Of a stretch of DNA of 64,000 nucleotides, positions 18,283 through 41,182 are shown one piece after another. Numbering within the stretch: position 1 is the stretch's first letter; each line of letters starts with the position of its first letter. This stretch comes from Christiangramia sp. LLG6405-1. Its GTDB lineage: Bacteria > Bacteroidota > Bacteroidia > Flavobacteriales > Flavobacteriaceae. The stretch spans positions 1,551,547 through 1,615,546 of the forward strand of contig NZ_CP159330.1 of assembly GCF_045055805.1 (NCBI RefSeq), given 5' to 3'. The notes beneath the pieces are model-generated. The model did not search any database. It was not told the origin of the DNA and saw nothing but the letters and a program-made list of their open reading frames with translations. A program made the position numbers and the translations under genes.

Positions 18283-19704
18283 CTATCCAAACCAAATATC
18301 ATTTTCCACCAATTCTTCGGAAGAATTTAATTTTACGGGAGAGAGATTTTCCTTCGTGTTCAAATACCGACTTACAATACGATCTGCGTAGCTGGAAGTT
18401 TTCGCCTGCACCAAAAAATTCCGGAATTCATCGGGATGGTTAAAGTCATCTGAGGGTCCAATGTACCCGTAGCCGGCATACTTTCCTTTATTTAAATAAA
18501 TAAAACTTTTTTCACCTTTAGTTCGACCCTTTTCCATCAATAGGCATGACTCATCATAAGTACCAATAAAATCTACTGCTCTGGCCACGCGTGAATTATA
18601 TTCCGTAACGGAAATTTCTTCTTTACAAACCCCGCTGCAGGCTTCTAGTTTGTAATGATTACAAGCGGAAGTAGCGCTTTGCAATCCAGTATATTTTGGG
18701 CAGAGATCAAAATCCTTACACAAATTCTCTAAAAAGCTTACCGCTTCTTCACGGGTATAGAATTTCATCCAGCTTACTGGTGCAATTTTGTTTTTATGCA
18801 AGGCAAATACTTCAATGCCTTTTTGATTATGATAAGAGGTGAGCGTATAAGGTCTCGAAACTTTCTTCTGCGCCTTATTATATTTCGGATAAAACTTCAG
18901 AATCAATTCGGCTTCACGAAGGAGCGCAAGAAATTCAGAACCAGTCAGCTCATAATCGATGCTATAGGTTTCCTGCATCAATTGGTACTTGCGATTACTA
19001 CGTTCCTGGAAGTGCGATTTTATTCGGGTTTTGATGTTTTTCGCCTTTCCAATATATAATGGAATACCATCTTTATCCCTGAAAAAGTAAACGCCGGTAG
19101 ATTTTGGAAGCTTTTCAAAATCGGCATTTTTAAAGTGTGGTGGTAAATATTCTGCACCACTTTTTCTATTCAGAAATTCGGTGACAACTTCGAGTTCAGG
19201 ATCCAGCGAAAGACAGCGTTTTAACAAAATCACAGTTGCTTCACAATCGCCCTGTGCACGATGTCTATCGTAAATTGGAATGTTGATGGAAGTGCAAATA
19301 TTTCCCAGACTGTAAGAAAACAAACCTGGAATTAATTTCTTCGTAAGTCTTACTGTGCAAAGACGCTTTCTCTTAAAATCCATGTCAAGCATCGCAAACT
19401 CAGCTCTCAATATATTGTAATCAAAGTTCACATTATGAGCGACGAAAATACAGTCTTTTGTGATTTCCATGATCTGTTCTGCGACTTCGGAAAACTGAGG
19501 GGCGCTGCTTACCATTTCATCATTGATTCCGGTAAGACTTTCAATATACAATGGAATGGACTGGCTGGGATTCACAAGCGATGTAAAGGTCTTTGTGATT
19601 TCACCATTCTCAAGAATGATCACGCAAACCTCTGTGATCCTGTTTCCTTTGATACCGTTCCCGGTAGTCTCAATATCAACAACCGCGTATTTCAACTCCT
19701 CCAT
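18283..19704 (-). CDS. DEDDh 3'-5' exonuclease (DnaQ-like) fused to a GIY-YIG nuclease domain
   Basis: N-terminal VVDIETTGN, then H..DA. The central GVYFFRDKDGIPLYIGKAKNIKTRIKSH is a GIY-YIG motif. Confidence 0.7.
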   Translation of the reverse strand: MEELKYAVVDIETTGNGIKGNRITEVCVIILENGEITKTFTSLVNPSQSIPLYIESLTGINDEMVSSAPQFSEVAEQIMEITKDCIFVAHNVNFDYNILRAEFAMLDMDFKRKRLCTVRLTKKLIPGLFSYSLGNICTSINIPIYDRHRAQGDCEATVILLKRCLSLDPELEVVTEFLNRKSGAEYLPPHFKNADFEKLPKSTGVYFFRDKDGIPLYIGKAKNIKTRIKSHFQERSNRKYQLMQETYSIDYELTGSEFLALLREAELILKFYPKYNKAQKKVSRPYTLTSYHNQKGIEVFALHKNKIAPVSWMKFYTREEAVSFLENLCKDFDLCPKYTGLQSATSACNHYKLEACSGVCKEEISVTEYNSRVARAVDFIGTYDESCLLMEKGRTKGEKSFIYLNKGKYAGYGYIGPSDDFNHPDEFRNFLVQAKTSSYADRIVSRYLNTKENLSPVKLNSSEELVENDIWFG

Positions 19705-27500: not shown

Positions 27501-27977
27501 AGGATTGGCAACAGAATTTTTATGAGCTGTATGAATACTGTTTTTAATAGTTTCCAGAGACCAGGTAGTCAAATCTTTTTGATCTGGATCGTCAATCTGT
27601 TTCTGTTCGCGGCGGCTCCACCGGTTCTGTCTGTAATAATCACTTAGTAATTCAGCTTTGTAACTTTGAAGCACCTGATCAAATGGAAAAGGAATCTGAG
27701 CGATAGAATTGTTGATATCCTGAAGTATGTAGCTTTCAGCGTTTTCGTGATTGATCTGGTATAGACGGTAATGGTAGATCTTAGACTTAATAAGCTCATC
27801 ATACCTTTTATCATTTTTCGCGCGCTGCATTAAACTATTAGTACGCTCTAAGGCAGTCTCAACTTTTCCCACCTTCTCAAGTGAATTGATCTGTAGCCAA
27901 CTTTCTTTATAACTAGGGTTTTGAGCGAATAGTAAACTTTGGGATATGATGAAGATCCCTAAAAGCAATTTTTTCAT
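21525..27977 (-). CDS. Alpha-2-macroglobulin-family giant lipoprotein/secreted protein (2150 aa) with embedded CarbopepD_reg + TonB-Plug-like segment
   Basis: Signal peptide, MG-like repeats, and a thioester-type motif HDCSEQ (CxEQ). The central RVQGRVVDENGEPLPGVNVMVKGSS is a CarbopepD_reg motif, followed by the SusC-type VVVTGYG...LQGKVAGVEV...PLFIVDG...IYGSRAADGVVIITT. Confidence 0.8.
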   Translation of the reverse strand: MKKLLLGIFIISQSLLFAQNPSYKESWLQINSLEKVGKVETALERTNSLMQRAKNDKRYDELIKSKIYHYRLYQINHENAESYILQDINNSIAQIPFPFDQVLQSYKAELLSDYYRQNRWSRREQKQIDDPDQKDLTTWSLETIKNSIHTAHKNSVANPGKLVNFSNSEIDVLLNAKTITRDFRPSIYDLLAGRYLEFLKDGSFFNLEFEAAKTEVNEEVLFATDSRFVNTEIAEVENSKLLALRQYQELERIHSKDKGDVSLNYWKLQRIEFVHAEFHADFQKYISAIERLEKNSKDRKIKAQLMFELANAYAEKASERDKEGLLKYPDYNAKAVNLLKLIESNYNNTLTRQNAQNLLKGLTAPSLEAQLQNILTRNEPGRTKLTYKNVDTIYMKIGKVSMNFLDKVNYRDRADFIKKEAAKISDSVQIVLPGETDYNEHSTEIVIPENDFGRYLVHLYDSEGNHTSGTYLVTNIAVSRTDFEKKNLFHIVDRKSGENLNDVVLRVKKGNTTILSRTSDLNGEIALDNYTGNRYWEEHTEFTEGDDFYSSSYNRGGNRYNYSNNEDRDSQAKVLFFLDRAIYRPGQKVHFKGVFLQHRNDSTSVVPNEYIDVFVDDPNENEIHEFRFKTNEYGSFTGSFDLPVNNLTGQFSIYAEEYIETDSDFWDELDDFQDDYKYFSVEEYKRPTFEVSFDTINKAYELGEEIALKGSAEAYIGASLPNLKVAYTVTRERMNYSWWRSYYSDPVIIKTDATETDENGEFIIPFEANADQNTNLNDLIYRYSVSASVTDVSGETRDAQQSLKIGNKNFLPKLEIADKIDINDTLKIDLATRNLNDRKVPATGTYKIYRLKSPEKHYQERWWEAPEFELISKDEFERLFPNEPYRKLTKPENWEKLEKVYESTFDSDGDFEDEIATRNWKEGSYLLSFELRHENKTEELLKVISIQDPKSNKAFTDQDLLVSIINKETLASDENAQVEISSPINNLRIRVSAFRNGRTSIFREYYKLDGKLKLKIPLKALEDPEFKLVLSSVMNNRQIEFSEVVNFRKDSEDLEISTETFRNKIRPGLEETWSFNVSTPGEKKEAEVLASMYDISLDQFKKDEWNTDTGFTGFRSDYPSLYFDNLGRSTNLNRYFGRYNYYRRVNLRFDELSQFGFDFGQPNSYQYRNYLSTLKVSNKADSGARVQGRVVDENGEPLPGVNVMVKGSSVGAQTDFDGEFGIDAPKNSLLTFSFVGFVSQEYQLGDETEVFIDLEADSSSLDEVVVTGYGEAAAEEVMEVTEQESQSVALLQGKVAGVEVSRTGANTEFKIRGSSSISGSPLFIVDGKPVEDYELDSKDIVRVEILKGAEATAIYGSRAADGVVIITTSKSLEDLENVDARTNLQETAFFFPDLRLDENGSLSFSFTTPEALTSWKLRLLAHNSNWSTGELEKIVTTSKDLNVVPNAPRFLREGDSIIFKVKVTNLSSEPMTGNAVLKLFDAVTMEPADIPMGNTETLQAFQIQAGKTRVVSWKLFVPETIPAVTYRILAKAGDFSDGEENLLPVLKNRMLVYESIPLFVRAGETENFEFENLKSNDSETLKNHQFTFEYTSNPGWFALQSLPYLMEYEHDCSEQIFSKIFANSVGQKIVNSKPEIAEVYEAWRKDSSMVSNLQKNEELKSLLLAETPWVQDAESESLQQQRIGLLFETGRMDKELTSMMTRLRRMQNLSGAFPWFAGGRDNYYITSHIIEGFGKLKNMNIELDDRRILANAIAYLDKELMEQKKRRESENSTDFYKSYTVLAYAHTRSMHQEEFPIPAEQKDLVNKSLEYQKQRWTDYSLSEKAELAITLDRFGHSVEALEILESLKQTAVKSETYGMYWKENTASWRSFNTPVEVQSQIIQAFAEVSKDMESIEELKIWLIQNKRTNYWETTKSTTAAVYALLMQGMDILPVSSNTQFVIGGDKLDMEELSNTPAEAGSGYVKTTWKAGEFSEDFGNIKIENNNTTAGYGGAYWQYFENLDKIKTHSESPLNIEKELYLNTGNNELKRIDTDTPLKVGDLVSVRLVVRSEADMEFIHLKDMRASGFEPTNVISEHKYQNSTSYYESTRDAATHFFFDKLRKGTYVLEYTVRANNAGSFSNGISTIESMYAPEFSGHTSGIRVEITEQE

Positions 27978-28078: not shown

Positions 28079-28843
28079 TTAATTATTGAGAGACGTACGC
28101 AGTTTATGAAATTCTTCCTCTAAAAAACTCATTTGTTGTTTAATGTCGGTATTCCTGCTATCTGGAATACGATGATAAAAGGCATATTTGATCTCCCAGA
28201 GCTCTTTTACATCGGCGTAAGGAATCTCAATATCTTCAATGCCTTTGTGATCTGCTTTTAAAATGAATTTTTTAGCCGACTGGTATATTCTTCTCAGGAA
28301 TACTTTTTCTTCGGAAACTACCAGGAACAAGCATGCACTCGCGAGATTTAGATATTGCTTCTTCTGAACTTTTACACCTATCACCACATCTTTCGGGTAA
28401 AATCCATCAGAATCTGTGCTCATTTCGAGGTCATGAATTACGAAAGCTCGTAGATCTGCCTCATCATAGATAGGTAGATGAATTTCCGGTAAATCTGCTA
28501 TAAAATTATCTTTAGTGTGATGCTGAATATATTCCTGTTGACCTTCCGGGGTGATGCAGGGCACTTTCTTGCAAATATTCGGTTTAGCTTTAAGGTCATC
28601 GTGCTCAGGTTTGCCTCTAAACTTCAGTAGTTCATTCACCGTAAGTTCGCTGGTAAGCAGATCATCTATAGGAATGCTAAAATAATTAGCAATCTTAATA
28701 ATGGTTTCTATCTTAGGTTCGCTTCGTCCTTCTTCATAAGCGCCCAGTGTACCACGTTTAAGATCAAATAGTTCAGCAAATGCTTGCTGACTCATACTAC
28801 GAACCGATCTTATTTTCCTGATGTTTTTTCCGAATAACGACAT
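28079..28843 (-). CDS. XRE-family HTH transcriptional regulator with C-terminal LexA/S24-like beta domain (possibly non-catalytic)
   Basis: N-terminal HTH_XRE (IRKIRSVRSMSQQAFAELFDLKRGTLGAYEEG). The C-terminal ~120 aa have S24-like topology but lack a clear Ser-Lys dyad. Confidence 0.6.
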   Translation of the reverse strand: MSLFGKNIRKIRSVRSMSQQAFAELFDLKRGTLGAYEEGRSEPKIETIIKIANYFSIPIDDLLTSELTVNELLKFRGKPEHDDLKAKPNICKKVPCITPEGQQEYIQHHTKDNFIADLPEIHLPIYDEADLRAFVIHDLEMSTDSDGFYPKDVVIGVKVQKKQYLNLASACLFLVVSEEKVFLRRIYQSAKKFILKADHKGIEDIEIPYADVKELWEIKYAFYHRIPDSRNTDIKQQMSFLEEEFHKLRTSLNN

Positions 28844-28846
28844 TAA

Positions 28847-28927
28847 TTGCTAATATTATTTGCAGAATTGAATATTTATTGTAAATTAGTCTAACAATAT
28901 TAGCAAATACATTTTACTATTGCTAAT
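28847..28927. promoter_or_regulatory. Operator-like repeats: TTGCTAATATT (28847-28857) / inverted copy AATATTAGCAA (28896-28906) / third TTGCTAAT (28920-28927)
   Basis: Perfect 11-bp inverted repeat with 38-bp spacing, plus a third half-site, in the divergent promoter region between the XRE regulator and the PspA operon. Confidence 0.45.
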
Positions 28928-29109
28928 TTTTTTAGTCTGAATCGTTCGAACACTCAGAGATCTGTTATTAACCAACTAAAGAATTAGAATTATGATCTCA
29001 TTTATTATCGATATAGCCACCGAGCTTATCACGTTTCTTTAACAAAGTCTTAATACTTTTTTGTATTATTAGGCTCTCAAAATAGTAGTACTAACCGTAA
29101 TAACCACCT

Positions 29110-29505
29110 ATGAAAAATCACTTTAATATTACGAGAGATTTTTTGCTGGAATTGAATTTTAATATCACCCGGGAGAATCCGGAAGATGGACTTTTAGTGA
29201 TTCAAAAAGAAAATTCTGGAATTAGAAATCTCATCGTAGGCGTTGCTCCGCCAATCTTAATTATGGAGCAGTACATTTTCAAGATCAATAACCAGTCTGA
29301 AAAGATATTTAAAAGTTTGTTGCAAAAGAATCGCGATATCGTTCACGGAGCTTTTGTGCTGGACGAGTCTGGTGAAAAAGTCATTTACCGCGATACCCTT
29401 CAGATTGAGAACATGGATCTGAACGAATTGGAAGGGAGCTTAAACTCACTCAGCTTATTAATGAGTGAATATTCAGATCATATCATAGAATTCTCAAAAT
29501 ATTAA
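29110..29505 (+). CDS. Hypothetical protein, first gene of PspA operon (tentatively YbjN/YjfI-like fold)
   Basis: 131 aa with no TM helix, ending 11 nt before pspA. Size and position parallel E. coli yjfI, which precedes the pspA paralog yjfJ. The fold assignment is tentative. Confidence 0.4.
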   Translation: MKNHFNITRDFLLELNFNITRENPEDGLLVIQKENSGIRNLIVGVAPPILIMEQYIFKINNQSEKIFKSLLQKNRDIVHGAFVLDESGEKVIYRDTLQIENMDLNELEGSLNSLSLLMSEYSDHIIEFSKY

Positions 29506-29516
29506 AATTCAGCATT

Positions 29517-30233
29517 ATGAACATCTTTAAGAGATTATTTAAAATAGGAGAGGCAGAAACAAATTCTGCCTTGGACAAAATGGAGGATCCAATCAAAATG
29601 ACCGAACAGGGCATTAGAGACATGAAACTTGACCTGGACAAAAGTTTGGAAGCATTGGCACAGGTGAAAGCACTTGCCATTAGAGCAAAGAACGACCAGG
29701 AGGAATTTCAGAATAAAGTGGACGATTACCAGAATAAAGCGATCATCATCCTGAAGAAAGCCCATTCGAAAGATATGGAACAGGCAGATGCAGATCGCCT
29801 TGCGCAGGAAGCTTTGGTGCAAAAAGAAGCAGCAGAGCAGCAGGTGCTAAGAGCTAAGGAAGAGTCGGTTAAATTCGATAATAACGTTGCTCAATTGCAA
29901 AAAAATATCCAGACCATAAAAGCAAATATCGGGAACTGGGAGAATGAACTCAAGACCCTAAAAGCAAGGGTTAAAGTATCGAATGCCACCAAGAACCTGA
30001 ATAAGCAAATGGCCGAACTTGATAGCACTGGTACGGTATCTATGCTGGAAAGAATGAAGGAAAAAGTAGCCCAGGAAGAAGCCCTGGCCGAGGCTTACGG
30101 AGATATTGCCAATGCTTCTAAATCCATCGATGAGGAAATTGATAAGGCGGCAGATACCTCAAAAGCAAAAGCAAGTGATGAACTGGCGAAGCTTAAAGAA
30201 CAACTTGGAATGAAAGATTCTAAAAACGAATAA
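29517..30233 (+). CDS. PspA/IM30/Vipp1 family protein (phage-shock protein A; bacterial ESCRT-III homologue)
   Basis: MNIFKRLFKIGEAETNSALDKMEDPIKMTEQGIRDM... is collinear with E. coli PspA ([36 protein letters not shown]). 238 aa, all-helical coiled coil. Confidence 0.9.
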   Translation: MNIFKRLFKIGEAETNSALDKMEDPIKMTEQGIRDMKLDLDKSLEALAQVKALAIRAKNDQEEFQNKVDDYQNKAIIILKKAHSKDMEQADADRLAQEALVQKEAAEQQVLRAKEESVKFDNNVAQLQKNIQTIKANIGNWENELKTLKARVKVSNATKNLNKQMAELDSTGTVSMLERMKEKVAQEEALAEAYGDIANASKSIDEEIDKAADTSKAKASDELAKLKEQLGMKDSKNE

Positions 30234-30235
30234 AC

Positions 30236-30946
30236 TTGGATAACCTAATCAACATACTTTTTTCAGAGGTAAACGTGATCCTGAGCGTGTTGCTCATGAT
30301 TCTAATCCTCTACTGGATCATCACTATGATAGGTGGTCTGGATTTCGATCCGGACTTCGATATCGATGTAGATGTGGATGCAGACGTGGATCTGGATTCT
30401 GGGATCGAAGGTGGAAATATGGATTTTGAAGATATTTCCAATACCGAGATCAATCAGGAAGACGTGGTTGGGAAGAGGCGAAAACCTTTAAAGTGGTGGC
30501 AGATATTTCTTATCTATTTCAATTTCGTGGGACTGCCATTTATGTTCACTTTTACTTTCTGGATCTTTGTCTGGTGGTTCATAACTACCCTGGTTACTGC
30601 GATCACTTCAAGCTATGATAACTTTATAGGTTTTGGGATCATGCTGCTGGCTTTATTTCCGGCACTATTCGTCACCAAGATACTTACCACACCTTTTAAA
30701 GGTTTCTTTAAAAACCTGAATAAGGACGGCGATGCACCCATCGACTATCTTGGTAGAAAGGCGACTTTGATGTCGACCATTTCAAAAGACAGGATGGGAA
30801 ATGCTGAGGTAAGCGTAAATGGTGATAGCTTATCTATTTACGTAAAATCACTTACTGGCGATGCACTCCCTTATGGAAGTAGTGTTCTTATTATCAAGCG
30901 GTCTCCAGATCGCAATTATTACCTCGTACAATCATATAACGAATAA
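30236..30946 (+). CDS. NfeD/YqiJ-like membrane protein (acidic DxD repeat loop, 3-4 TM, C-terminal OB-fold beta domain)
   Basis: TM helices, an acidic loop DFDPDFDIDVDVDADVDLD, and a C-terminal GRKATLMSTISKDRMGNAEVSVNGDSLSIYVKSLTGDALPYGSSVLIIKR (NfeD short-form OB-like). Sits 2 nt after pspA and 16 nt before the flotillin gene. Confidence 0.6.
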   Translation: MDNLINILFSEVNVILSVLLMILILYWIITMIGGLDFDPDFDIDVDVDADVDLDSGIEGGNMDFEDISNTEINQEDVVGKRRKPLKWWQIFLIYFNFVGLPFMFTFTFWIFVWWFITTLVTAITSSYDNFIGFGIMLLALFPALFVTKILTTPFKGFFKNLNKDGDAPIDYLGRKATLMSTISKDRMGNAEVSVNGDSLSIYVKSLTGDALPYGSSVLIIKRSPDRNYYLVQSYNE

Positions 30947-30962
30947 AACTAATCTAACTACA

Positions 30963-33038
30963 ATGGAATCAATCTTACCAATTATTGGAATTGGAATAGG
31001 CGTATTGCTATTTCTAATCATCGTTTACTTCGCGATCATCGCGATGTTCTACAAAAAAATTCCCCAAGGACAGGCACTCATCAGGACCGGTTTTGGAGGG
31101 ACAAAGGTCGCTACAGATAAAGGTCTGTATACGGTGCCTGTTTTTCATAAAACCGAGATCATGGATATTTCTGTCAAGAAGATCCAGATCGAAAGACTGG
31201 CGCATGAAGGTCTTATTTGTAGAGACAATATGCGTGCAGATATCAAAGTTGCCTTTTTCGTTCGGGTGAACAATGATATTGAATATATTAAAAAAGTAGC
31301 GCAGACTATAGGTGTGGACCGTGCATCTAAAATTGCCACGCTGGAAGATCTTTTTGAAGCAAAGTTTTCAGAAGCATTAAAGACAGTAGGTAAAAAATTC
31401 GATTTTATCGAGCTTTATGAAGCCAGACGTGAATTTAGAGATGAGATCGTAAATATCATTGGGACAGATCTTAATGGCTATACACTTGAAGATTGTGCGA
31501 TCGATTTCCTGGAGCAGACTTCAGTAAAAGAATTAAAGCCAGACAATATTCTGGATGCGGAAGGGATCAAGAAGATCACCGAGCTTACGGCAGTTCAGAA
31601 TATGAAAGCTAACCTTATCAAGCGTGATGAGGAAAAAACCATCAGAAAGCAAGATGTGGAAGCCAGAGAAGCCATTCTTGAACTGGATAAGCAATTAGCT
31701 GAAAAAGAAGAGCAACAGAAACGTGAAATTGCGAATATCAAAGCTCGTGAAACTGCAGAAACTCTGAAAGTAGACGAAGAAGAAAGACTAAAATCTGAAA
31801 CTGCCAGAATTGCTACGGAAGAAAAAGTAAAGGTTGCTGAAGAAAATATGCAACGCCAGATCATCGTAGCACTTAAAAATAAAGAGCGTACCGATGCTGT
31901 GGAGTCTGAAAGAGTTGAAAAAGACAGGTTACTAGAAGCTACCGAGCGTGAAAGAGTGGTAACTCTCGCACAAATCGAGAAAGAGAAGGTTGTTGAGGTT
32001 GAGAAGAAAAACATCCAGGATGTGATTCGCGATCGTGTAATGCTGGAAAAAGGAGTGGTAGAAGAGCAGGAAAACATGAAAGATATCCAGGCATTTAAAA
32101 CTGCCGACAGGGATAAGCAGGTTAAAATTACTACTGCGGAAGCATCTGCTCAGGAAGAACTTATTAAAACCACGATTGCTGCGGAAGCTCAAAAAGAAGC
32201 TGCCAAGCAAAAAGCCGAAGAGATCAATATCGAAGCACTTGCTCACAAAGAAGCCAGCCAGAAACAAGCTGAAGCGAGAAAAATTCTTGCTGAAGCCCAG
32301 GCGAAAGAAGAAGCAACTGTTGGTATGTCTGAAGCTCAGGTAATGCATGCGAAGGCTGATGCCAACGAGCGTCAGGGACTTGTAGAAGCGAATATCATCG
32401 AGAAAAAAGCACGTGCTGAAGCGGCCGGGATGGAAGCCAAAGCAGATGCTAAACGTAAAGATGGACTTGCCGAAGCAGATATAATTAAAGAGAAAGCGAT
32501 AGCTGATGCTTCAGGAATCGAGGAGAAAGCTGCTGCAATGAAGAAACTGGATGGTGTTGGAAAAGAACACGAAGAGTTCAAATTAAGACTGAACAAAGAT
32601 CTTCAGGTAGATCTTGCCAATATCAATATTCAGAAGGAAATCGCAGATGCACAGGCGCAGGTAATTGGAGATGCGTTGAAAGCTGCTAAGATCGATATCG
32701 TTGGTGGAGAAACTATGTTCTTCGATCAAATCGTTGGCCAGATCACCAGAGGTAAAGGTTACGACAGGCTAGTACAGAACTCTACGAACATCCAGGAGGT
32801 AAAAACTGCTATTCTTGGTAGTGAAGATGTAAAAGGGAATCTGCTTGAAAAAGTAAGAGACTTCGCGTCTAAATATGGAGTAAGTACCGAGGATATTAAA
32901 AACCTTAGTATTGCCTCTCTTATTACAGATCTTAAAATAAAATCTGATGATAAGGAAGAGCAAACCATGCTCGGCAATCTTCTGAACCTGGCGAAAGGCC
33001 TGGGAATTCAGGATAAACCGATCTCAAAACTTAGATAA
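30963..33038 (+). CDS. Flotillin / SPFH (band-7) family protein, YqiK-like (691 aa)
   Basis: N-terminal TM helix, an SPFH domain (PQGQALIRTGFGGTKV...), and a long EA/K-rich flotillin-type coiled coil. The track start at 30861 overlaps the previous gene, so the ATG at 30963 is preferred. Confidence 0.85.
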   Translation: MESILPIIGIGIGVLLFLIIVYFAIIAMFYKKIPQGQALIRTGFGGTKVATDKGLYTVPVFHKTEIMDISVKKIQIERLAHEGLICRDNMRADIKVAFFVRVNNDIEYIKKVAQTIGVDRASKIATLEDLFEAKFSEALKTVGKKFDFIELYEARREFRDEIVNIIGTDLNGYTLEDCAIDFLEQTSVKELKPDNILDAEGIKKITELTAVQNMKANLIKRDEEKTIRKQDVEAREAILELDKQLAEKEEQQKREIANIKARETAETLKVDEEERLKSETARIATEEKVKVAEENMQRQIIVALKNKERTDAVESERVEKDRLLEATERERVVTLAQIEKEKVVEVEKKNIQDVIRDRVMLEKGVVEEQENMKDIQAFKTADRDKQVKITTAEASAQEELIKTTIAAEAQKEAAKQKAEEINIEALAHKEASQKQAEARKILAEAQAKEEATVGMSEAQVMHAKADANERQGLVEANIIEKKARAEAAGMEAKADAKRKDGLAEADIIKEKAIADASGIEEKAAAMKKLDGVGKEHEEFKLRLNKDLQVDLANINIQKEIADAQAQVIGDALKAAKIDIVGGETMFFDQIVGQITRGKGYDRLVQNSTNIQEVKTAILGSEDVKGNLLEKVRDFASKYGVSTEDIKNLSIASLITDLKIKSDDKEEQTMLGNLLNLAKGLGIQDKPISKLR

Positions 33039-33046
33039 ATGGAAAT

Positions 33047-33076
33047 GCCGGTGCCTGGCACCGGCTTCTTTTTTAA
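33047..33076 (+). terminator. Strong intrinsic terminator (GCCGGTGCC-T-GGCACCGGC + TTCTTTTTT)
   Basis: 9-bp GC-rich perfect inverted repeat plus a T-tract, 9 nt after the flotillin stop and before the ATPase gene. Confidence 0.7.
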
Positions 33077-33113: not shown

Positions 33114-36100
33114 ATGGCAAAGGAACCCATAAAGGAAGAGAATGCGCAAAAACTGGATGTTGGTACCTACGAGGTGATCCAGGGCAGACTGCAAAAGCAA
33201 AAAACTGAGTTACAATCCCGACTTCAGAAATTAAATGAAGAGCGGCAGAAGGTTTTTGGTTCTTTGGAAACCAGGCTTATCGCCAATGACCGCATCAATA
33301 CCGAAAACAACTGTATCGCGAGGGATATCGTTTCCCTTGGCAATACCTGCATTTTTGGTTACAATGTGCATTTTGGTTTGCGTACAGAGATCTCTTTGAA
33401 TGATGTAATGAGTATTTACAGGTTTGAGAATAATTCTTTTGAAGCCATCGATACAGATCTACTGAAAAACGATGTTTTCGAATCTGATTTCAAAAATCTT
33501 TACAAGTATTACAGAAACACCATTTTCTCGAAATTCGCTGTAATTGGAAACTATCTTTATATGGTTTTCCGGTTAAGTGAGAGTGTAACCGATATCAAAA
33601 CCTTCAAATGGCTTATTAAAGATGAAGGTTTGCAATATGTGGACAATCGTAGTGATCACGAATACAAACTACCGTCACAACATGAATTCAACTGGCAGGA
33701 AGTATCCAGAGATCAACATAGGCAGGGAGTTCATGCGCATGTTTCTATTCTGGATCGTGTTTTTGTAGAGACCATTGGCGGTGATCTTACAATCAAGATC
33801 GAGGATAATACCAATGATGGAAAAGGAATCTTTTCCGAAGAAGTAGAGCATAGGGACCAAACGCTGGATGACGCACAGTATAGATTTGCGAATCTTGGTA
33901 ATCTCATCATTCTTGAAATTAAACCATTTCAGGAAGGGCCGCGTTATTTTGTGTATAATCACAAGCTGCGGGAAGTTCAAAAGATCAGCAGTATCAAGGA
34001 TACCTGTGTATTGTTACCAGACGGCCAGGGAATAATTTTCCCAACCGGGTATTACTTACAAACCGGGGAATATCATTTGTTCGATCATAGCATTCCGAAT
34101 TTAAGATTTCAGGAAAAGATAAGTTCTCCAAATGGCGAGGATTTTCTGTACGTATTCTACGCTCCGGAAAACGGACTCTACAACCTGATGAGCTATAATG
34201 TGATCTCCCAGGAAATCCAGACTCCAATTATTTGTAATGGTTTTACGATTCTTGAAAAAGGCGAACTATGCTATTTCAAGAACGAAAATGAACAAACCAA
34301 GCATCATGTGATCCAGATCTGGCAAACGCCATATCTTAAAGGTGATTTTATGCCTTCCAGTCATGAGGATAGCCTGTTATATAAGATCGGAAACAAGGAT
34401 ATTGTAAAAGCGATGGCTGAGGTAAACGGACTCGTAAATCTTCTAAATAAAGAGGATAATTATGATGGTTTGTATGCAGATCTTTCCAAGCGTTCCAAGG
34501 ATATTCTGGATGCTTATTACTGGCTGAAAGAAGAGGAAACTCAGCTTCTAAATGAGCCACTTCGGGAAATTAACCAGGCTGCAAATGCTGCCATGGATGA
34601 ATTTCAGAAGGTGCTGGAACTCAAGAAGAATGCTAGGCAGAAAACTAACGAAATAGGGAAAGAAGCCGAGCAAATCTTTAATAAGATAAAAAGTTCAGGT
34701 TTTCGGAATATCAATGATTTCGTAATTGCATTGACGCAGCTCAGGTCATTAAGAGGAGAAGCGATCAGTCTCAAAGAAGTACGTTATGTAGATGAGCAAT
34801 TTATTGAAAACCTTGAAGAGCAAATAGCCGAGCAAACTACAAAGATCTCGCGAAGATGCGTGGATTTCTTACTGGATGAGAAAGCTCTGAATCCATATCA
34901 CAAAGCAGTAAGTGATAAGGAAGAGCAGCTATCTGATATTAATAAGGTAGTTGATGCCCGAAAACTGGAGGAAGAAGTCAATAAAATTTCAGAAGATCTT
35001 GAATTATTAATTGATATTGTTTCAAATCTTGAAATAGAGGATACTTCGCATTCTACCAAGATTATCAATAATATTTCACTAATTTTTTCTTCGATCAACC
35101 AGTTAAAGGCAGAGATCAGGAAGAAGCGAAAATCCCTTGGAAGTGCAGAAGCTCAAGCCGACTTTGCCGCGCAATTAAAGCTTATCGATCAAAGTATCAT
35201 CAACTACCTTGACATCGCTGATACTCCGGAAAAATGTGATGACTTTCAAACCAGGATTTCCATTCAGCTAGAAGAATTGGAGGGAAAGTTTGCCGATTAT
35301 GAGGAATTTATTGAGCTGATTATTGAGAAGCGGGAAGAAGTTTATAATGCATTTGAAGCTCGTAAGAATACACTCGTAGAAAAACGAAATAAACGTGCGG
35401 TAACTTTACAAAATTCCGCAGGAAGAATCCTGAAAGGTGTTCGTAAGAAATCTGAATCTTTTAATGAAGTAGCAGATATCAATGCTTATTTCGCTTCAGA
35501 TATCCTGGTGAACAAAGCCAGAGATATTGCCACGCAACTACAGGAAATGGATGACAGTGGAAAGGCTGAAGAAATTCAGTCGATGCTGAAGTCTGCCCGC
35601 GAAGATGCACTTCGAAAACTGAAGGATAAGAAGGAAATTTACGAGGATGGCGATTCGATCATCAAGCTGGGGAAACATAAATTTGGCGTTAATAAACAGG
35701 AGCTTGATCTTACGATCTTATTCGTGGACGATGCTTTGCATTATCATATAACAGGAACCGACTTTTATCAGAAAATTGAAAATGAGACTCTTCTAAAGTC
35801 TGAAAGATTCTGGAGCCAGGATTATATTTCAGAAAACAAGAGTATATACCGAGCCGGTTTTCTTGCCTATAAATTATTCCGAAGATTTGGTGAAGAACTA
35901 AAGGACCATACGGAGGAAGATTTGATCAGGCTAGTGCAGGAGGAAAGTAGCAAAGATTATTCTGAAGGATACGTGAAAGGAATTCATGATCTGGATGCGG
36001 CAAAAATACTATCTGTGCTTCTGGAAAAGCATGAGGCTTTGGATCTGCTTCGGTTTCACCCCGTAATCAGGTCCTGCGCACAATTCTTCTGGAAATTTTC

Positions 36101-37991
36101 TTCTTCGGAAATCCGGTCAAATTTGGATCAGAATATAAAAGCTGCGGGAGAAGTGTTGCAGGTATTTCCAAATTCCAGAGAATACCAGTCATTGCTGAAA
36201 ATACTAACCAAAGAGATTCAAGATTTTGGTCAGAAATCAGGAATTTTTGAACCTGAACTGGCTTCTGAAGTTGCTGAATATTTGTTTGAAGAATTGCAAA
36301 ATGATGATGATTTTCAAAAAAGCGGAATAGCCATCGGGATCAAAGAAGATTTCCTGAATATGCTGAAGTCTGAAAATGCCGATCTAAAATTTAAAGATAG
36401 TCTCAAAAGCCTGAGTTCAAACCAGGCAAAAGTAGCCTTGATCGAGCAGTGGTTGAAAGCATTTTTGCAAAGCAAACTAGATGATCAAACGAGCTTAAAA
36501 ACCAAATATGTAAGTGAAGCAGCAGCGCTTATACTCTTTGAGGATGAATCTGTCTTAAATACAAAATTTACTTCACCATCTCAGCATATTGAGAATTTGA
36601 GAGGTGAGCATCGCCTGGTCAAAGCAGGAGTTTTCGATTTCAACTATCATGATTTTGTATCGACTTACAGGAACTATTTTGAGATCGATGTTCCAGCTTA
36701 CCACGAATTTAGAAAAGCCAGGCATGAAGTAACCCTTCAGCTTAAAGAAGATCTTAAACTTGAAGAATTCAAGCCGGGAACACTAAACTCTTTTGTTCGA
36801 AATAAATTGATAGACCAGGTTTATTTTCCTCTATTTGGAGATAACCTGGCCAAACAGCTCGGTACCGTTGGAGATCAAAAAAGAACAGATCGAATGGGAT
36901 TGCTGTTGCTTATTTCTCCTCCAGGTTACGGTAAAACTACCTTAATGGAATATATCGCCAACAGGCTTGGACTGGTTTTTATGAAAATCAATGGTCCGGC
37001 GATTGGTCATGATGTAACTTCAGTAGACCCATCTTCAGCTACTAATTCGGCAGCCCGGGAAGAGCTTAAAAAGCTGAATCTTGCCTTTGAAATGGGGAAT
37101 AATGTGATGCTGTATCTTGACGATATCCAGCATTGTAATCCTGAATTCCTTCAGAAGTTTATATCTCTTTCCGACGGAACCAGGAAAATCGAAGGGATTT
37201 ACAATGGGAGATCGAGAACCTATGATATGCGTGGGAAAAAGTTCTGCGTGATCATGGCCGGGAATCCTTATACAGAAAGCGGAGAGAAGTTTCGAATTCC
37301 AGATATGCTGGCGAACCGTGCAGATATTTACAATCTTGGTGATATTATTGGCGATACCGCTCATCTGTTCAGGTTGAGTTTGATCGAAAATTCACTGACC
37401 TCCAATCCTGTTCTGCATCAGCTTAGTAGCAAGAATTTTGATGATGTTTACAGATTACTGGACAGAATTGAGAATAATAACCAGGAAGTACAGCTGGAAG
37501 GGAATTACTCGAACCAGGAAGTACAGGAATATGTGTCGGTTCTGGAAAAGGTTATACAGATTCGAAACAGTGTATTGAAAGTGAATGCGGCTTATATCAA
37601 AAGTGCTGCGATGGAGGATGAGTATCGAACAGAGCCATCTTTCAAATTGCAGGGTTCTTATCGTGATATGAATAAACTGGTGGCAAAAGTGGTTCCGGTA
37701 ATGAATGATGCGGAATTGCAAACGCTTATTCTGTCGCATTATGAAAGCGAATCTCAAACCCTTACTTCAGCTGCGGAAGCAAACTTATTGAAATACAAAG
37801 ATCTTATTGGCAATTTGAACGAAGAGGAACGGAGCAGATGGAATACCATTCAGGAAACTTTTCAGAAGAATAATAAACTAAAAGGTTTTGGGAACAAAAA
37901 TGAGATGGCGCAATTGCTTTCTCAAATGATGGAATTCACAGATAATCTTGAGGGTATTAAACAGGTGTTGCAAAATGGATTTAATAAGTGA
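33114..37991 (+). CDS. Giant (1625 aa) multidomain protein: beta-rich N-terminal domain + ~700-aa coiled coil + C-terminal AAA+ ATPase (MoxR/AAA_5-like)
   Basis: Walker A LLLLISPPGYGKTTL, Walker B VMLYLDDIQ, sensor-1-like FCVIMAGNPYTE, and Arg-rich RIPDMLANRADIY. The central region is heptad-like and E/K-rich. The track start at 33039 lies inside the terminator hairpin, so the ATG at 33114 is preferred. Confidence 0.7.
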   Translation: MAKEPIKEENAQKLDVGTYEVIQGRLQKQKTELQSRLQKLNEERQKVFGSLETRLIANDRINTENNCIARDIVSLGNTCIFGYNVHFGLRTEISLNDVMSIYRFENNSFEAIDTDLLKNDVFESDFKNLYKYYRNTIFSKFAVIGNYLYMVFRLSESVTDIKTFKWLIKDEGLQYVDNRSDHEYKLPSQHEFNWQEVSRDQHRQGVHAHVSILDRVFVETIGGDLTIKIEDNTNDGKGIFSEEVEHRDQTLDDAQYRFANLGNLIILEIKPFQEGPRYFVYNHKLREVQKISSIKDTCVLLPDGQGIIFPTGYYLQTGEYHLFDHSIPNLRFQEKISSPNGEDFLYVFYAPENGLYNLMSYNVISQEIQTPIICNGFTILEKGELCYFKNENEQTKHHVIQIWQTPYLKGDFMPSSHEDSLLYKIGNKDIVKAMAEVNGLVNLLNKEDNYDGLYADLSKRSKDILDAYYWLKEEETQLLNEPLREINQAANAAMDEFQKVLELKKNARQKTNEIGKEAEQIFNKIKSSGFRNINDFVIALTQLRSLRGEAISLKEVRYVDEQFIENLEEQIAEQTTKISRRCVDFLLDEKALNPYHKAVSDKEEQLSDINKVVDARKLEEEVNKISEDLELLIDIVSNLEIEDTSHSTKIINNISLIFSSINQLKAEIRKKRKSLGSAEAQADFAAQLKLIDQSIINYLDIADTPEKCDDFQTRISIQLEELEGKFADYEEFIELIIEKREEVYNAFEARKNTLVEKRNKRAVTLQNSAGRILKGVRKKSESFNEVADINAYFASDILVNKARDIATQLQEMDDSGKAEEIQSMLKSAREDALRKLKDKKEIYEDGDSIIKLGKHKFGVNKQELDLTILFVDDALHYHITGTDFYQKIENETLLKSERFWSQDYISENKSIYRAGFLAYKLFRRFGEELKDHTEEDLIRLVQEESSKDYSEGYVKGIHDLDAAKILSVLLEKHEALDLLRFHPVIRSCAQFFWKFSSSEIRSNLDQNIKAAGEVLQVFPNSREYQSLLKILTKEIQDFGQKSGIFEPELASEVAEYLFEELQNDDDFQKSGIAIGIKEDFLNMLKSENADLKFKDSLKSLSSNQAKVALIEQWLKAFLQSKLDDQTSLKTKYVSEAAALILFEDESVLNTKFTSPSQHIENLRGEHRLVKAGVFDFNYHDFVSTYRNYFEIDVPAYHEFRKARHEVTLQLKEDLKLEEFKPGTLNSFVRNKLIDQVYFPLFGDNLAKQLGTVGDQKRTDRMGLLLLISPPGYGKTTLMEYIANRLGLVFMKINGPAIGHDVTSVDPSSATNSAAREELKKLNLAFEMGNNVMLYLDDIQHCNPEFLQKFISLSDGTRKIEGIYNGRSRTYDMRGKKFCVIMAGNPYTESGEKFRIPDMLANRADIYNLGDIIGDTAHLFRLSLIENSLTSNPVLHQLSSKNFDDVYRLLDRIENNNQEVQLEGNYSNQEVQEYVSVLEKVIQIRNSVLKVNAAYIKSAAMEDEYRTEPSFKLQGSYRDMNKLVAKVVPVMNDAELQTLILSHYESESQTLTSAAEANLLKYKDLIGNLNEEERSRWNTIQETFQKNNKLKGFGNKNEMAQLLSQMMEFTDNLEGIKQVLQNGFNK

Positions 37992-38180
37992 TTCCTAACT
38001 AGCTGGTCTAACCTAAAAACATAGAAATCGTAGAACAATTGTTAAAAAGCGCCATTATTAACATGATTTACTGGAATAGAGTCAAAATCTTGCTTTTTAC
38101 ATGGTTATTTAATTACTGAATATTCAAACTCTTTATATATATTGGAATCTATTAAAAAAACCAACTTTAATAATAACTTT

Positions 38181-39215
38181 ATGAAGAAGAATTTTAATTT
38201 TTTTAGAGGTTTAACAACAGTAGCAGCTTTGGCTTGTGTATTGTTTATGACTTCTTGTTCAGATGAACCGGTAGATAATTCTGTTTCAAGCCTTAAAACA
38301 GAAAACGCAAAAGCGTTTACACTGGCTAATGCAGAGACAGATTTTGTTACACTAGAAGGGAAAGCTGGTGCGTTTGAAAATGGAACTCGTACAACTACAG
38401 CTCCAGGTGATGATCGAGGTAGATTCAATATTACTTTTAGATACCTCACTCAGCTTACAGATAGGCAGCTTAGTGTTTTTGAATCTGCGGCGGCAAGATG
38501 GGAAAGGATTATTATCAAAGATGTTCCTTCTATTACTGGAACAATTCCTTCTGCGTTTGGAGGAGTGCCACCTATTGTGGAAAATGGAACTATAGATGAT
38601 ATTGTAATTGAAGTAGTGATTGCGCCAATTGATGGTCCAGGACAGGTTTTAGGCCAGGCAGGACCTCGTTTTACGAGAACTTCTGATGGTTTAACCGTAA
38701 CCGGGTTGATGTTTTTTGACGTAGATGATTTAGATTTTCTTGATGAACTAGATCTTTTTGAAGATGTGATCGTGCATGAAATGGGTCACGTATTAGGGGT
38801 AGGAACGCTTTGGAGAGGTAAAGGTCTTATTGGTGGTCCAGACTCAAATCCATACTTTACTGGTAAAAAAGCTAATGTATTCTGGAATGCCGAAGGTGGA
38901 GAATTTGAACTTCCTATAGAAAATGCTGGTGGTCCTGGTACTGCATTAGGTCATTGGAGAGAATCTCTTCTTAGAAATGAGCTGATGACTGGATTCATCA
39001 ATCTTGGAGAAAATCCTTTAAGTAGAATTACGGCCGGTTCTTTAAGAGATCTTGGATATGGATCATCATCTGTAGGAGAGAGCTACGATTTGCCAAAAGG
39101 TACTCCAGGGGTAAATATTGGTGAATTAGCTAAATCCTCTGAAGTTAATGGACTACATATTGCAAAAATGGAAGAAATTCTACTTCCTATTGGAACTATT
39201 CGTACAGCAAAATAA
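38181..39215 (+). CDS. Zinc metalloprotease lipoprotein (HExxH; leishmanolysin/M8-like)
   Basis: Lipobox LFMTSCS, zinc motif VIVHEMGHVLGVG, and a downstream H...E arrangement. Confidence 0.5.
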   Translation: MKKNFNFFRGLTTVAALACVLFMTSCSDEPVDNSVSSLKTENAKAFTLANAETDFVTLEGKAGAFENGTRTTTAPGDDRGRFNITFRYLTQLTDRQLSVFESAAARWERIIIKDVPSITGTIPSAFGGVPPIVENGTIDDIVIEVVIAPIDGPGQVLGQAGPRFTRTSDGLTVTGLMFFDVDDLDFLDELDLFEDVIVHEMGHVLGVGTLWRGKGLIGGPDSNPYFTGKKANVFWNAEGGEFELPIENAGGPGTALGHWRESLLRNELMTGFINLGENPLSRITAGSLRDLGYGSSSVGESYDLPKGTPGVNIGELAKSSEVNGLHIAKMEEILLPIGTIRTAK

Positions 39216-39266
39216 CCTTCGCTGTAGCTTAATATCTTGATTGAAGATAAATGAATTTCATACTCA

Positions 39267-39312
39267 AAAGAGCCTTGTTTGCTGAAATGCTGAATGAGGC
39301 TCTTTTATTTTG
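39267..39312 (+). terminator. Possible terminator (AAAGAGCC...GGCTCTTT + T-rich tail, large loop)
   Basis: 8-bp stem with a 23-nt loop and a T-tract, 50 nt after the protease stop. Confidence 0.35.
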
Positions 39313-39424
39313 TCTCCTTTTTACCTTTCTACATTATTGCTTAGGTCTAAAATCACATATCATTTAATTTTCAGTTTTCAATTAAATGACAGAACTTTCG
39401 AAGTTCTAACCAAACCAACTTTTT

Positions 39425-40303
39425 ATGGCCTCAGGATTTTTTACTTTACTGGATGATATTGCTGCATTGATGGATGATGTTGCGGTGATGAGCAAAGTTG
39501 CCGGTAAGAAAACTGCCGGATTGCTTGGTGATGACCTTGCTGTAAATGCAGAAAAAGCCAGCGGATTTATTTCTGATAGAGAATTGCCAGTATTATGGGC
39601 GATCACTAAAGGTTCCCTTTTAAACAAGCTGATCATTCTGCCGGTCGCGTTTTTACTGAGTGCGTTTGTTCCGGTGGCTATAAAGATCATACTCCTTATT
39701 GGTGGATTGTACCTGGCTTATGAAGGTGCAGAGAAGATCCATGAATACTTGTTTCCTCATAAACACGCGAAATCCACACCTGTTCCAGAAGATCTTACAA
39801 AAGAACAGATGTTAGAACGAGAAGATGAGAAAGTAAAATCGGCTATACTTACAGATTTCATACTTTCTGTAGAGATTGTGATCATTGCTTTAGGAACCGT
39901 AGGCGGAGAGGAGTTACCAACTCAAATTGGAGTAGTAAGTGTAATTGCGCTTGTAGCTACCGTTGGAGTTTATGGAGTGGTTGCTCTTATCGTAAGGATG
40001 GACGAATTCGGAGCCAAGCTTATCAATATGAATGAGCAAACGGATAGCTTTTCAGATAAAGTAGGTAAATTTTTAGTGAATGCATTGCCATGGGTAATCA
40101 AGGGATTGGCGCTTATTGGTACAATAGCCTTGATGTTGGTTTCCGGAGGGATTTTCGTGCATAATCTTGAATTTATACATGATCAGGTACATTCTTTACC
40201 AACTATTCTTGGGGAATTCCTGGTTGGACTAGTTGTAGGAGCAATTGTTTTACCCCTGGTTGGACTGGGGAAAAAGATATGGAAGTCGGTTTCCAACAAA
40301 TAA
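39425..40303 (+). CDS. DUF808 (YedI-like) inner-membrane protein
   Basis: MASGFFTLLDDIAALMDDVAVMSKVAGKKTAGLLGDDLAVNAEK is the YedI/DUF808 N-terminus. Confidence 0.7.
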   Translation: MASGFFTLLDDIAALMDDVAVMSKVAGKKTAGLLGDDLAVNAEKASGFISDRELPVLWAITKGSLLNKLIILPVAFLLSAFVPVAIKIILLIGGLYLAYEGAEKIHEYLFPHKHAKSTPVPEDLTKEQMLEREDEKVKSAILTDFILSVEIVIIALGTVGGEELPTQIGVVSVIALVATVGVYGVVALIVRMDEFGAKLINMNEQTDSFSDKVGKFLVNALPWVIKGLALIGTIALMLVSGGIFVHNLEFIHDQVHSLPTILGEFLVGLVVGAIVLPLVGLGKKIWKSVSNK

Positions 40304-40324
40304 ATTTCAAATTTAAATACATTC

Positions 40325-41182
40325 ATGGATAGAAATTTCTGGCTCGAACTTAAAGAACAACTCCTTGACTTTTTGATCGAAATTGGTCCAGAGATATTTT
40401 ATTCTGTCGTTACACTTATCATTGGAATTTTTGCTATCAAAATTCTAATGAATTTGCTGAAAGGCACTCTGCGAAGATCTAAAGTGGAACTTTCCCTGAA
40501 AACTTTTGTAGAGAGTCTCAGTGTCTTTGTGCTCTACGGCTTTTTATTTTTCGTAATTGGATCCATTTTAGGAATTAAGACGACCTCGTTTATTGCAGTA
40601 TTTGGAGCAGCTGGTATTGCCATTGGTCTCGCTTTGCAAGGCAGTTTATCTAATTTTGCAGGTGGCGTGTTAATTCTGGTGTTTAAACCTTTTAAAGTTG
40701 GAGATCTAATCTACGTGAACGAGAATCTGGGTTTTGTAGAGCAGATAGATATTCTGTATACACGTATAAAAACCTTCGACGGAAGGATTATTACGATGCC
40801 TAATGGTAATGTTTCCAACAGTGATGTAGATAATCGCACGATGGAAAAGTATCGTCGCATAGATCTCAATTTGAAGTTCGCTTTTGATGAGGATATTGAT
40901 AATTTAAGAAGAATCATTATCGCAGGAATGAACAAGCATCCAAAATTAGCTACGCACTTACCAGTTGATGTCTGGTTAGATGAAATAGGAGAGTACGAAA
41001 TGAAACTCAAGGCCAGATGCTGGGTCGAATCGGTGGAATTCTGGCCGGCATACTGGGAACAATTGGAGGCGGTCAAAAAGCAACTTGATCTGGAAGAGAT
41101 TAAAATACCAATTCCACGCCATGAGATCTATAGAGGTGCTCAGGAAACCACTGAAATGGATATAAGACCTTCTAATAATTGA
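40325..41182 (+). CDS. Small-conductance mechanosensitive channel (MscS family)
   Basis: Three TM helices plus the pore motif IAVFGAAGIAIGLALQGSLSNFAGGVLILVFKPFKVGD. Confidence 0.85.
   Translation: MDRNFWLELKEQLLDFLIEIGPEIFYSVVTLIIGIFAIKILMNLLKGTLRRSKVELSLKTFVESLSVFVLYGFLFFVIGSILGIKTTSFIAVFGAAGIAIGLALQGSLSNFAGGVLILVFKPFKVGDLIYVNENLGFVEQIDILYTRIKTFDGRIITMPNGNVSNSDVDNRTMEKYRRIDLNLKFAFDEDIDNLRRIIIAGMNKHPKLATHLPVDVWLDEIGEYEMKLKARCWVESVEFWPAYWEQLEAVKKQLDLEEIKIPIPRHEIYRGAQETTEMDIRPSNN

Follow-up and report, generated by a model that had tools for sequence, protein, structure and literature searches.

A DUF3686-family AAA+ ATPase of Christiangramia encoded in a conserved flotillin-NfeD membrane module

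In a stretch of 64,000 nucleotides from Christiangramia sp. LLG6405-1 (contig NZ_CP159330.1, positions 1,551,547 to 1,615,546; referred to here as the window), we have analyzed the gene at positions 33114 to 37991 of the forward strand, which encodes an AAA+ ATPase of the DUF3686 family. The best explanation of our results is that this ATPase belongs to a conserved three-gene membrane module, composed of an NfeD/YqiJ-like protein, a flotillin, and the DUF3686 AAA+ ATPase itself; in the Bacteroidota and the Gammaproteobacteria, genes for PspA and a CesT-like protein are added to it. The ATPase is probably an ATP-driven partner of the flotillin module that acts at the membrane. It is an unexceptional representative of a Pfam family that is widely distributed and whose architecture and operon have been published; because the operon was described in 2024, the system is already known at the level of description, and the window represents a clean, typical example of it rather than a discovery. 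What is added here is the linkage to flotillin in 71 of 73 loci, predicted structures, an affinity of the AAA+ core to the MoxR/dynein group, an invariant Asp-Asp Walker B motif, an indel-free helical arm, and a variable terminator hairpin.

Gene neighborhood and distribution of the family

Proteins encoded in the window were used as queries to scan the 80 best genomic loci, of which the 66 that extended at least 3.5 kb upstream were counted. With seven more loci that were examined individually, the survey comprised 73 loci and nine phyla. In 71 of these, the gene immediately preceding that of the ATPase, on the same strand, encodes a flotillin ortholog: in 64 of the 66 scanned loci (E values of 1e-119 to 0), which span the Bacteroidota, Planctomycetota, Verrucomicrobiota, Desulfobacterota, and Clostridia, and in all seven of the others, which come from the Gammaproteobacteria, Acidobacteriota, Deinococcota, and Actinomycetota (Pseudomonas indica, Teredinibacter, Reinekea, Hahella, an acidobacterium, Deinococcus, and Streptomyces). 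An NfeD-like ortholog directly precedes the flotillin gene in 61 of the 66 scanned loci. The functional link to the flotillin/PspA genes that had been proposed from the window sequence alone is supported by these counts. PspA itself is present in 32 of the 66 scanned loci, and the CesT-like protein and a regulator are present in 30 each, all of these loci being from the Bacteroidota; in the Gammaproteobacteria, DUF2170 (a YjfI-type CesT-like protein) and PspA stand in front of the module in all four loci examined. Flotillin with NfeD, rather than PspA, is the universal partner of the ATPase. PspA and membrane enzymes have been recruited to the module recurrently.

In 13 loci, made up of all those of the Clostridia and several from the Planctomycetota, Verrucomicrobiota, and Bacteroidota, the gap between the flotillin and ATPase genes is only -33 to +30 nucleotides; since the genes abut or overlap, cotranscription is implied. 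The two loci without an upstream flotillin gene, L033 (5921-7471) and L049 (8392-9760), have toxin-antitoxin or Uma2-type genes (Uma2-like, DUF4258, or ParE toxin) immediately upstream of the ATPase gene, an arrangement that is consistent with secondary insertions that split the operon. Clustering of the other open reading frames (ORFs) in the 80 loci yielded only antisense shadow ORFs and no further conserved partner.

Downstream genes were also observed in the Gammaproteobacteria. On the same strand, 3' of the ATPase gene, there is either a rhomboid intramembrane protease together with a Zn-ribbon protein (Teredinibacter and Hahella) or a PLDc_2 phospholipase D (Pseudomonas indica); these genes are located at 12302-14256 in L086, 12387-13490 in L088, and 13305-13997 in L081. 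Such partners are missing from the flavobacterial operon.

In the window, the ATPase gene is the last of a run of five genes on the forward strand. The first encodes a CesT/Tir-like chaperone-fold protein of 131 residues (29110-29505; CesT_Tir_1, E = 1.5e-56) and the second encodes PspA/IM30, a bacterial ESCRT-III-like protein of 238 residues (29517-30233; PspA_IM30, E = 4.5e-41). The third product, of 236 residues (30236-30946), has no significant Pfam match; its translation contains hydrophobic segments with a long acidic, D-rich loop and ends in a beta-rich tail; we refer to it as an NfeD/YqiJ/YuaF-like membrane protein, following the nomenclature of the published operon (PMC11237479). Its loop, at about residues 36 to 80, is strikingly acidic and Asp-rich (DFDPDFDIDVDVDADVDLDSGIEGGNMDFEDISNTEINQED) and lies between hydrophobic segments. 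The fourth gene encodes flotillin (30963-33038; Band_7, E = 1.1e-14), the likely start of which is M35 of an ORF beginning at 30861; the translation has an N-terminal hydrophobic segment, which we interpret as a transmembrane hairpin, followed by a Band-7/SPFH domain and a long Ala/Glu/Lys-rich, probably helical C-terminal region. Flotillin is encoded directly upstream of the ATPase, as had been read from the sequence, and PspA lies two genes further up.

The ATPase gene itself is intact, a stop-free ORF of 1,625 residues, in agreement with the earlier reading. An ATG at 33039 opens a longer alternative ORF; however, the extension spans a terminator-like hairpin, and most homologs are 1,615 to 1,640 residues long and cover 99 to 100% of the query, so the start at 33114 is reasonable.

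The family is large. More than 5,000 proteins matched the ATPase in a word-indexed search, a search with the N-terminal domain alone gave 716 clusters (50% identity), and matches in a genome collection came from at least 584 species representatives. Full-length members have 1,500 to 2,036 residues, with the DUF3686 domain nearly always at the N terminus, and the best named relatives, from Christiangramia/Gramella, are 82% identical. The sequence-only reading had called the architecture unusual among bacterial AAA+ proteins; given these numbers, the existence of the Pfam family, and the published operon, that view cannot be upheld.

These distribution data also bear on the idea that the genes form an anti-phage or other conflict system, in which the NTPase, with its predicted N-terminal propeller, would be a sensor or switch and the membrane would be protected or altered by PspA and flotillin upon infection. 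Defense systems often include large NTPases that have repeat-domain sensors, toxin-antitoxin genes are found near some of the loci, and the PADLOC profile mad8 gave a weak match (E = 8e-6). The latter match is confined to the P-loop region, however, beyond which PADLOC families match nothing, and Pfam detects no effector domain in the ATPase. A screen of 50,697 phage records found no family member, and among 72,556 plasmid records there were only 13 with a match, mostly megaplasmids or records of chromosome size; the surroundings of the operon in the window are of a housekeeping nature (genes of the glyoxylate shunt, transporter genes, and an alpha-2-macroglobulin gene); and the six-gene arrangement is retained within the Flavobacteriaceae at 60 to 97% identity, unlike variable defense islands. 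We regard a role in defense as very improbable, and a mobile-element or defense origin was rejected on the basis of the absence of phage matches, the very few plasmid matches, and the housekeeping flanks.

Predicted architecture and class of the ATPase

The protein carries the complete set of family features. DUF3686 (PF12458) spans residues 32 to 469 and profile positions 1 to 448 of 448 (E = 6.9e-180; 598.8 bits against a cutoff of 25), DUF7902 (PF25472) spans residues 590 to 674 (89.6 bits against a cutoff of 26), and a single C-terminal AAA module at residues 1264 to 1388 is matched by both AAA (E = 1.5e-7) and AAA_5 (E = 4.3e-6), each above its gathering score; the family motifs and their spacing are also present. 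Searches of the PDB with the protein and with the family profile returned only P-loop matches of approximately 35 residues, and therefore the ATPase has no solved relative; NCBIfam and PADLOC profile scans likewise gave only subthreshold P-loop matches. Two AlphaFold2 models were examined, one of residues 1 to 860 (predicted local distance difference test [pLDDT] score of 84) and one of residues 841 to 1625 (pLDDT of 88), both built from alignments of 103 sequences from a mixture of Flavobacteriaceae, Gammaproteobacteria, and Acidobacteriota.

The DUF3686 region (33165-34325) is predicted to consist of an N-terminal helix (residues 18 to 48) and an approximately seven-bladed beta-propeller (residues 54 to 404) with about 26 strands and pLDDT values mostly of 85 to 93. 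In Foldseek searches, the beta part matched seven-bladed propellers (E of approximately 1e-5, probability 1.0), including the DCAF1 WD40 domain, Elp1, prolyl oligopeptidase, and thiocyanate dehydrogenase. The model thus agrees with the beta-rich, propeller-like N-terminal domain that had been anticipated and indicates a propeller that has no close solved relative. A helical arm follows (residues 421 to 842, including DUF7902; 34374-35639), with predicted helices of approximately 10 to 58 residues separated by short loops. Across 40 diverse members from many phyla, the arm is essentially free of indels (gap fraction of 0.00), although its identity to the window protein is only 32%. A fixed length of this kind suggests that the arm is constrained like a spacer or ruler, as it would be if it had to match a partner whose size is fixed.

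The middle region (35658-36755), with pLDDT values above 90 over most of its length, comprises a small beta domain (residues 849 to 887), an all-alpha domain of 230 residues (residues 913 to 1142), and a beta element plus long helix (residues 1156 to 1214, the helix itself occupying residues 1178 to 1214). Total helical content is roughly 700 residues, the length that the sequence-only reading had assigned to coiled coil; in the models, however, it is segmented into four parts, and no continuous coiled coil is demonstrated.

The AAA+ alpha/beta core (36804-37331) contains five strands that position the nucleotide-site motifs normally: Walker A, SPPGYGKTT (LLLLISPPGYGKTTL; S1268 to T1276); Walker B, VMLYLDDIQ (YLDDIQH), with the acidic pair D1336-D1337; and sensor 1, MAGNPYTE (FCVIMAGNPYTE; N1384). 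The core also has a putative Arg finger, R1402. It is followed by a lid (37335-37985) that contains the invariant sequence YRTEPxFxLQGSYR, in which R1517 is the putative sensor 2, and by C-terminal helices. The model of residues 841 to 1625 contains no second P-loop domain, and Pfam gives one AAA/AAA_5 match; therefore, the earlier description of a single ATPase module is correct.

In 40 diverse members, residues S1268 to T1276, D1336 to H1340, G1383 to T1387, N1401-R1402, and Q1513 to R1517 are invariant, giving the family motifs SPPGYGKTT, DDIQH, AGNPYTE, NRAD, and QGSYR. The Walker A, Walker B, and sensor 1 motifs stand where they had first been read, and the outcome that would have counted against that reading, a lack of conserved Walker and sensor residues, is contradicted. 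Of 65 representatives, nearly all keep the spacing of Walker A-67-Walker B-47-sensor 1-18-Arg. On average, the alpha/beta core is 72% identical to that of the window protein across phyla, compared to 38% in the propeller and 20 to 24% in the least conserved parts, namely the middle alpha domain and the subsequent beta/long-helix element. Judged from these identities and from the conserved motif spacing, the catalytic site is under strong constraint.

The core had been likened to MoxR and dynein, and part of the evidence agrees with this view. The AAA_5 profile exceeds its cutoff, the closest structural neighbors fall in the MoxR/AAA_5 group, sensor 1 is of the AGNP type, and the model includes the pre-sensor-1 beta-hairpin of that group (residues 1358 to 1371, with strands at 1358 to 1363 and 1366 to 1371, between helix 3 and beta-4). 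Other results fit less well: the generic AAA profile scores slightly above AAA_5; RuvB heads the Foldseek ranking for the core (E = 1e-5, 18% identity), ahead of ClpB, ClpA, and CbbQ; a helix-2 beta-hairpin insert is not predicted, there being only a short helix and a loop at residues 1294 to 1311; and no VWA/MIDAS partner was found in the ATPase, in nine neighboring products, or among the conserved neighbors of the 80 loci. AAA, AAA_5, AAA_22, and RuvB_N each match all of 29 AAA modules from different phyla; the profile for MoxR proper, AAA_3, matches three of the 29, weakly (best E = 0.031). The evidence is thus mixed, but on balance it favors the earlier assignment, which was largely right about the type of ATPase. 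Because AAA_3 matches so few modules and a VWA/MIDAS partner is absent, we describe the core as a distinct lineage of the pre-sensor-1-hairpin AAA+ group, nearest to MoxR/dynein/midasin (AAA_5) but not MoxR proper. The ATPase matches no SMC_N, ABC-type, or McrB-type profile, nor does it have the features of the Vps4 type, i.e., an MIT domain, a Vps4 C-terminal domain, and a classical core that lacks the pre-sensor-1 hairpin.

The similarity to RuvB is relevant to the database names of the family. The Pfam description of PF12458 is "ATPase involved in DNA repair," NCBI uses "DNA repair ATPase," and among the source names of homologs many are "DNA repair ATPase" or "AAA family ATPase" and a few are "MoxR-like ATPase." If these names were taken at face value, the protein would be a DNA repair enzyme or a RuvB-like nucleic acid translocase, and it is true that RuvB is the top Foldseek match, that the P-loop stretch aligns with RuvB in the PDB profile search, and that the pre-sensor-1 hairpin has a basic tip. 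However, RuvB_N scores only 23 to 25.4 bits against a cutoff of 27, over the P-loop alone, and the NCBIfam RuvB model scores 22.7 bits against a cutoff of 282. The model has no strands C-terminal to the lid, the expected site of a RuvB-type winged helix; Pfam detects no DNA-binding domain; no repair gene is conserved nearby, the upstream gene being flotillin in nearly all loci; and a literature search found no paper that supports the name. Membership in a DNA repair family, which had been set out as grounds for abandoning a membrane role if it came with a nonmembrane gene context, exists in name only, since the gene context is consistently membrane related. Nothing in our results supports the "DNA repair ATPase" label, and we consider a function of this kind extremely improbable.

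Proposed role at the membrane, regulation, and genomic surroundings

Since the ATPase is almost always encoded immediately after the flotillin gene, it probably remodels the flotillin scaffold. In the mechanism that we propose, the C-terminal MoxR/dynein-like AAA+ modules would assemble into a ring. The propellers, held at a fixed distance by the constant-length arm, would attach to the flotillin/NfeD assembly at the inner membrane, on its cytoplasmic side, and, where PspA is present, may also bind PspA polymers. ATP hydrolysis would then pull on or remodel these oligomers, leading to their assembly, turnover, or release, a role that would be analogous to that of Vps4 on ESCRT-III or of midasin on preribosomes. 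The domain architecture, the strictly conserved residues of the nucleotide site, and the near-obligate linkage to flotillin are observed, whereas oligomerization, the partner that is bound, and the direction in which it is affected are inferred. A specific Vps4-like disassembly of flotillin/PspA assemblies is a tentative proposal. Equally speculative is the full picture of a bacterial counterpart of Vps4, that is, a homo-oligomeric, single-module midasin- or dynein-like machine whose propeller docks onto flotillin/NfeD cages, and also onto PspA polymers where these are present, so that the ring can disassemble or reshape them. It is conceivable, from the charges of the two sequences, that the acidic loop of the NfeD/YqiJ-like protein contacts the basic tip of the pre-sensor-1 hairpin of the ATPase.

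Several observations weigh against an ATP-driven partnership with flotillin at the membrane. We found no experimental work on the interactions, localization, or ATPase activity of any family member, and in the library searched no paper mentions DUF3686 or PF12458 or combines the name "DNA repair ATPase" with flotillin. To our knowledge, many flotillin-NfeD operons do not include a DUF3686 ATPase, for example, yqiJK of Escherichia coli and yuaF-floT of Bacillus subtilis; therefore, the ATPase is not essential for flotillin function in general. Pfam and the AlphaFold2 models give no membrane anchor, MIT-like domain, or VWA domain in the ATPase. The Walker B motif has an invariant Asp-Asp in place of the usual Asp-Glu, which might mean that hydrolysis is slow and switch-like rather than that of a motor. 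Finally, in the window, the flotillin and ATPase genes are separated by a strong terminator-like hairpin on the forward strand (33047-33074, including the T run). This hairpin, GCCGGTGCC-TGG-GCACCGGC (33047-33065), has an 8-bp stem with seven GC pairs and a 3-nucleotide loop, is followed by TTCTTTTTT, and has a folding energy of -20.3 kcal/mol (z = -4.5 relative to shuffled sequences).

Termination with attenuated read-through had been suggested at this position, and the terminator-like hairpin is indeed there. Similar hairpins occur only in some loci of the Bacteroidota (L002, L011, L013, L015, L017, and L046) and in none from other phyla, where the genes abut or overlap; attenuation is thus a local feature at most, and a conserved attenuator was rejected. 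If the hairpin does attenuate transcription, for example, to yield less ATPase than flotillin, this would be a lineage-specific adjustment rather than a feature of the system. Promoter motifs were also counted. The Bacteroidota-type -7 motif (TANNTTTG) does not occur on the forward strand between 27668 and 33881, its total in the window (68, with 67 expected) is that expected by chance, and a sigma-70 promoter scan was also at the chance level; therefore, these counts are uninformative with regard to an internal promoter of the ATPase gene.

The linkage to flotillin fits equally well with a client-directed chaperone or extractor, in which flotillin/NfeD would be an ATP-independent holdase or corral and the ATPase would unfold, extract, or insert the membrane protein clients held there, as FtsH may do inside the HflK/C cage or as MoxR proteins do in maturing target complexes. 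The AAA+ protease FtsH is enclosed by SPFH proteins, the MoxR-type structural neighbors CbbQ and NorQ mature other complexes, and the FloA-NfeD pair of Staphylococcus aureus is reported to be an ATP-independent stabilizer of unfolded proteins (cited in PMC13086221). Aromatic and basic residues are conserved in the pre-sensor-1 hairpin and might form the lining of a pore. However, the stretch between beta-2 and helix 2 has no aromatic pore-loop-1 motif and is occupied by the conserved sequence NGPAIGHxVTSxDP, neither the ATPase nor its neighbors provide a protease or a VWA/MIDAS partner, and the neighborhoods of the 80 loci contain no conserved client gene. We judge a client-directed activity to be unlikely, although it is the most credible of the alternatives, and continue to favor an ATP-driven action on the flotillin module itself.

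Flotillin and PspA assemblies are thought to organize and repair the cytoplasmic membrane, and the DUF3686 family is a concrete candidate for their energy-dependent remodeling. If this is true, SPFH scaffolds and microdomains would gain an ATP-dependent regulator. If remodeling of flotillin or PspA were shown, the misleading "DNA repair ATPase" label that many homologs carry would be corrected.

The operon is flanked by an XRE-type helix-turn-helix (HTH) regulator, transcribed divergently from it (28079-28843, reverse strand), with an HTH at residues 5 to 64 (Pfam HTH_19/HTH_3) and an unassigned C-terminal domain of approximately 190 residues. The 30 of 66 loci with an ortholog in the same divergent position all have CesT-PspA except L024 and L021 (PspA only). 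The intergenic region (28844-29109) is a candidate operator/promoter region with TTGCTAAT repeats (repeat families D1, I1, and I2). This octamer occurs in direct orientation at 28848 and 28921 and inverted (ATTAGCAA) at about 28899, forming imperfect palindromes of 19 to 26 nucleotides, and it is plausible from this arrangement that the repeats are the operator for the regulator.

The wider neighborhood of the window is ordinary chromosome, with genes for an alpha-2-macroglobulin-like protein, a solute symporter, isocitrate lyase, and malate synthase. The alpha-2-macroglobulin-like protein (21525-27977, reverse strand; 2,150 residues; MG2, A2M, and bMG10) has CarboxypepD_reg and TonB-dependent-receptor Plug domains in the middle of the protein, an unusual combination. 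A 473-residue protein encoded at 18283-19704 on the reverse strand is a fusion of an RNase_T/DnaQ-like exonuclease domain and a GIY-YIG nuclease domain. Downstream of the ATPase gene (38142-41182, forward strand), there are genes for a protein with a weak match to leishmanolysin-like zinc proteases, a DUF808 membrane protein, and an MscS-type mechanosensitive channel; these are probably unrelated neighbors, because in the scan of 80 related loci none of them followed the ATPase gene.

Comparison with known systems

With MoxR proteins such as CbbQ, NorQ, and RavA and with dynein and midasin, the ATPase has in common its AAA_5 score, the AGNP-type sensor 1, and the predicted pre-sensor-1 hairpin, and it resembles midasin and dynein in the long helical element that links the ring to a binding domain. 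It differs from MoxR proteins in having no VWA/MIDAS partner, only rare and weak AAA_3 matches, no predicted helix-2 hairpin, and DD instead of DE in Walker B. Size is a further difference: the ATPase has one module in approximately 1,625 residues, whereas MoxR proteins have approximately 300 residues and dynein and midasin have six concatenated modules.

The arrangement is also reminiscent of Vps4 acting on ESCRT-III in archaea and eukaryotes and of FtsH in the HflK/C SPFH cage, in each of which an AAA+ ATPase is coupled, genetically or physically, to a polymer or cage at the membrane. According to a 2025 review, in which this is discussed for PspA, a Vps4-like ATPase "appears absent in bacteria" (PMC7619361). 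Beside the gene for the window ATPase there are genes for PspA, which is an ESCRT-III homolog, and for flotillin, which is an SPFH protein, the coupling here being a genetic one; unlike Vps4 and FtsH, the DUF3686 ATPase is without an MIT domain, a protease domain, or a membrane anchor.

The closest comparison is with the operon described in the 2024 comparative genomic study of the Psp system in mSystems, which consists of PspA, CesT/Tir, band-7/flotillin, YqiJ, and AAA+ genes, includes a YqiJ/YuaF protein with three transmembrane segments, and was likewise read as membrane-dynamics machinery (PMC11237479). That study noted that a phospholipase D gene is present in some Proteobacteria and that abbreviated flotillin-YqiJ(-ATPase) operons are more widespread. 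In the window, the CesT/Tir-like gene is followed by pspA on the same strand, the flotillin gene product has an N-terminal hydrophobic segment, a band-7 domain, and a long Ala/Glu/Lys-rich C-terminal region, in keeping with the published membrane protein (transmembrane segment, band-7 domain, coiled coil, flotillin region), and the architecture of the ATPase, as judged from the AlphaFold2 models and fold searches, is that of the published protein. Gene content (with the putative NfeD/YqiJ-like protein in the place of YqiJ), gene order, and ATPase architecture are the same as those described, and nothing essential differs. The variants agree as well, with the abbreviated form in other phyla and phospholipase D in some Proteobacteria, and each statement made about the operon is reproduced here.

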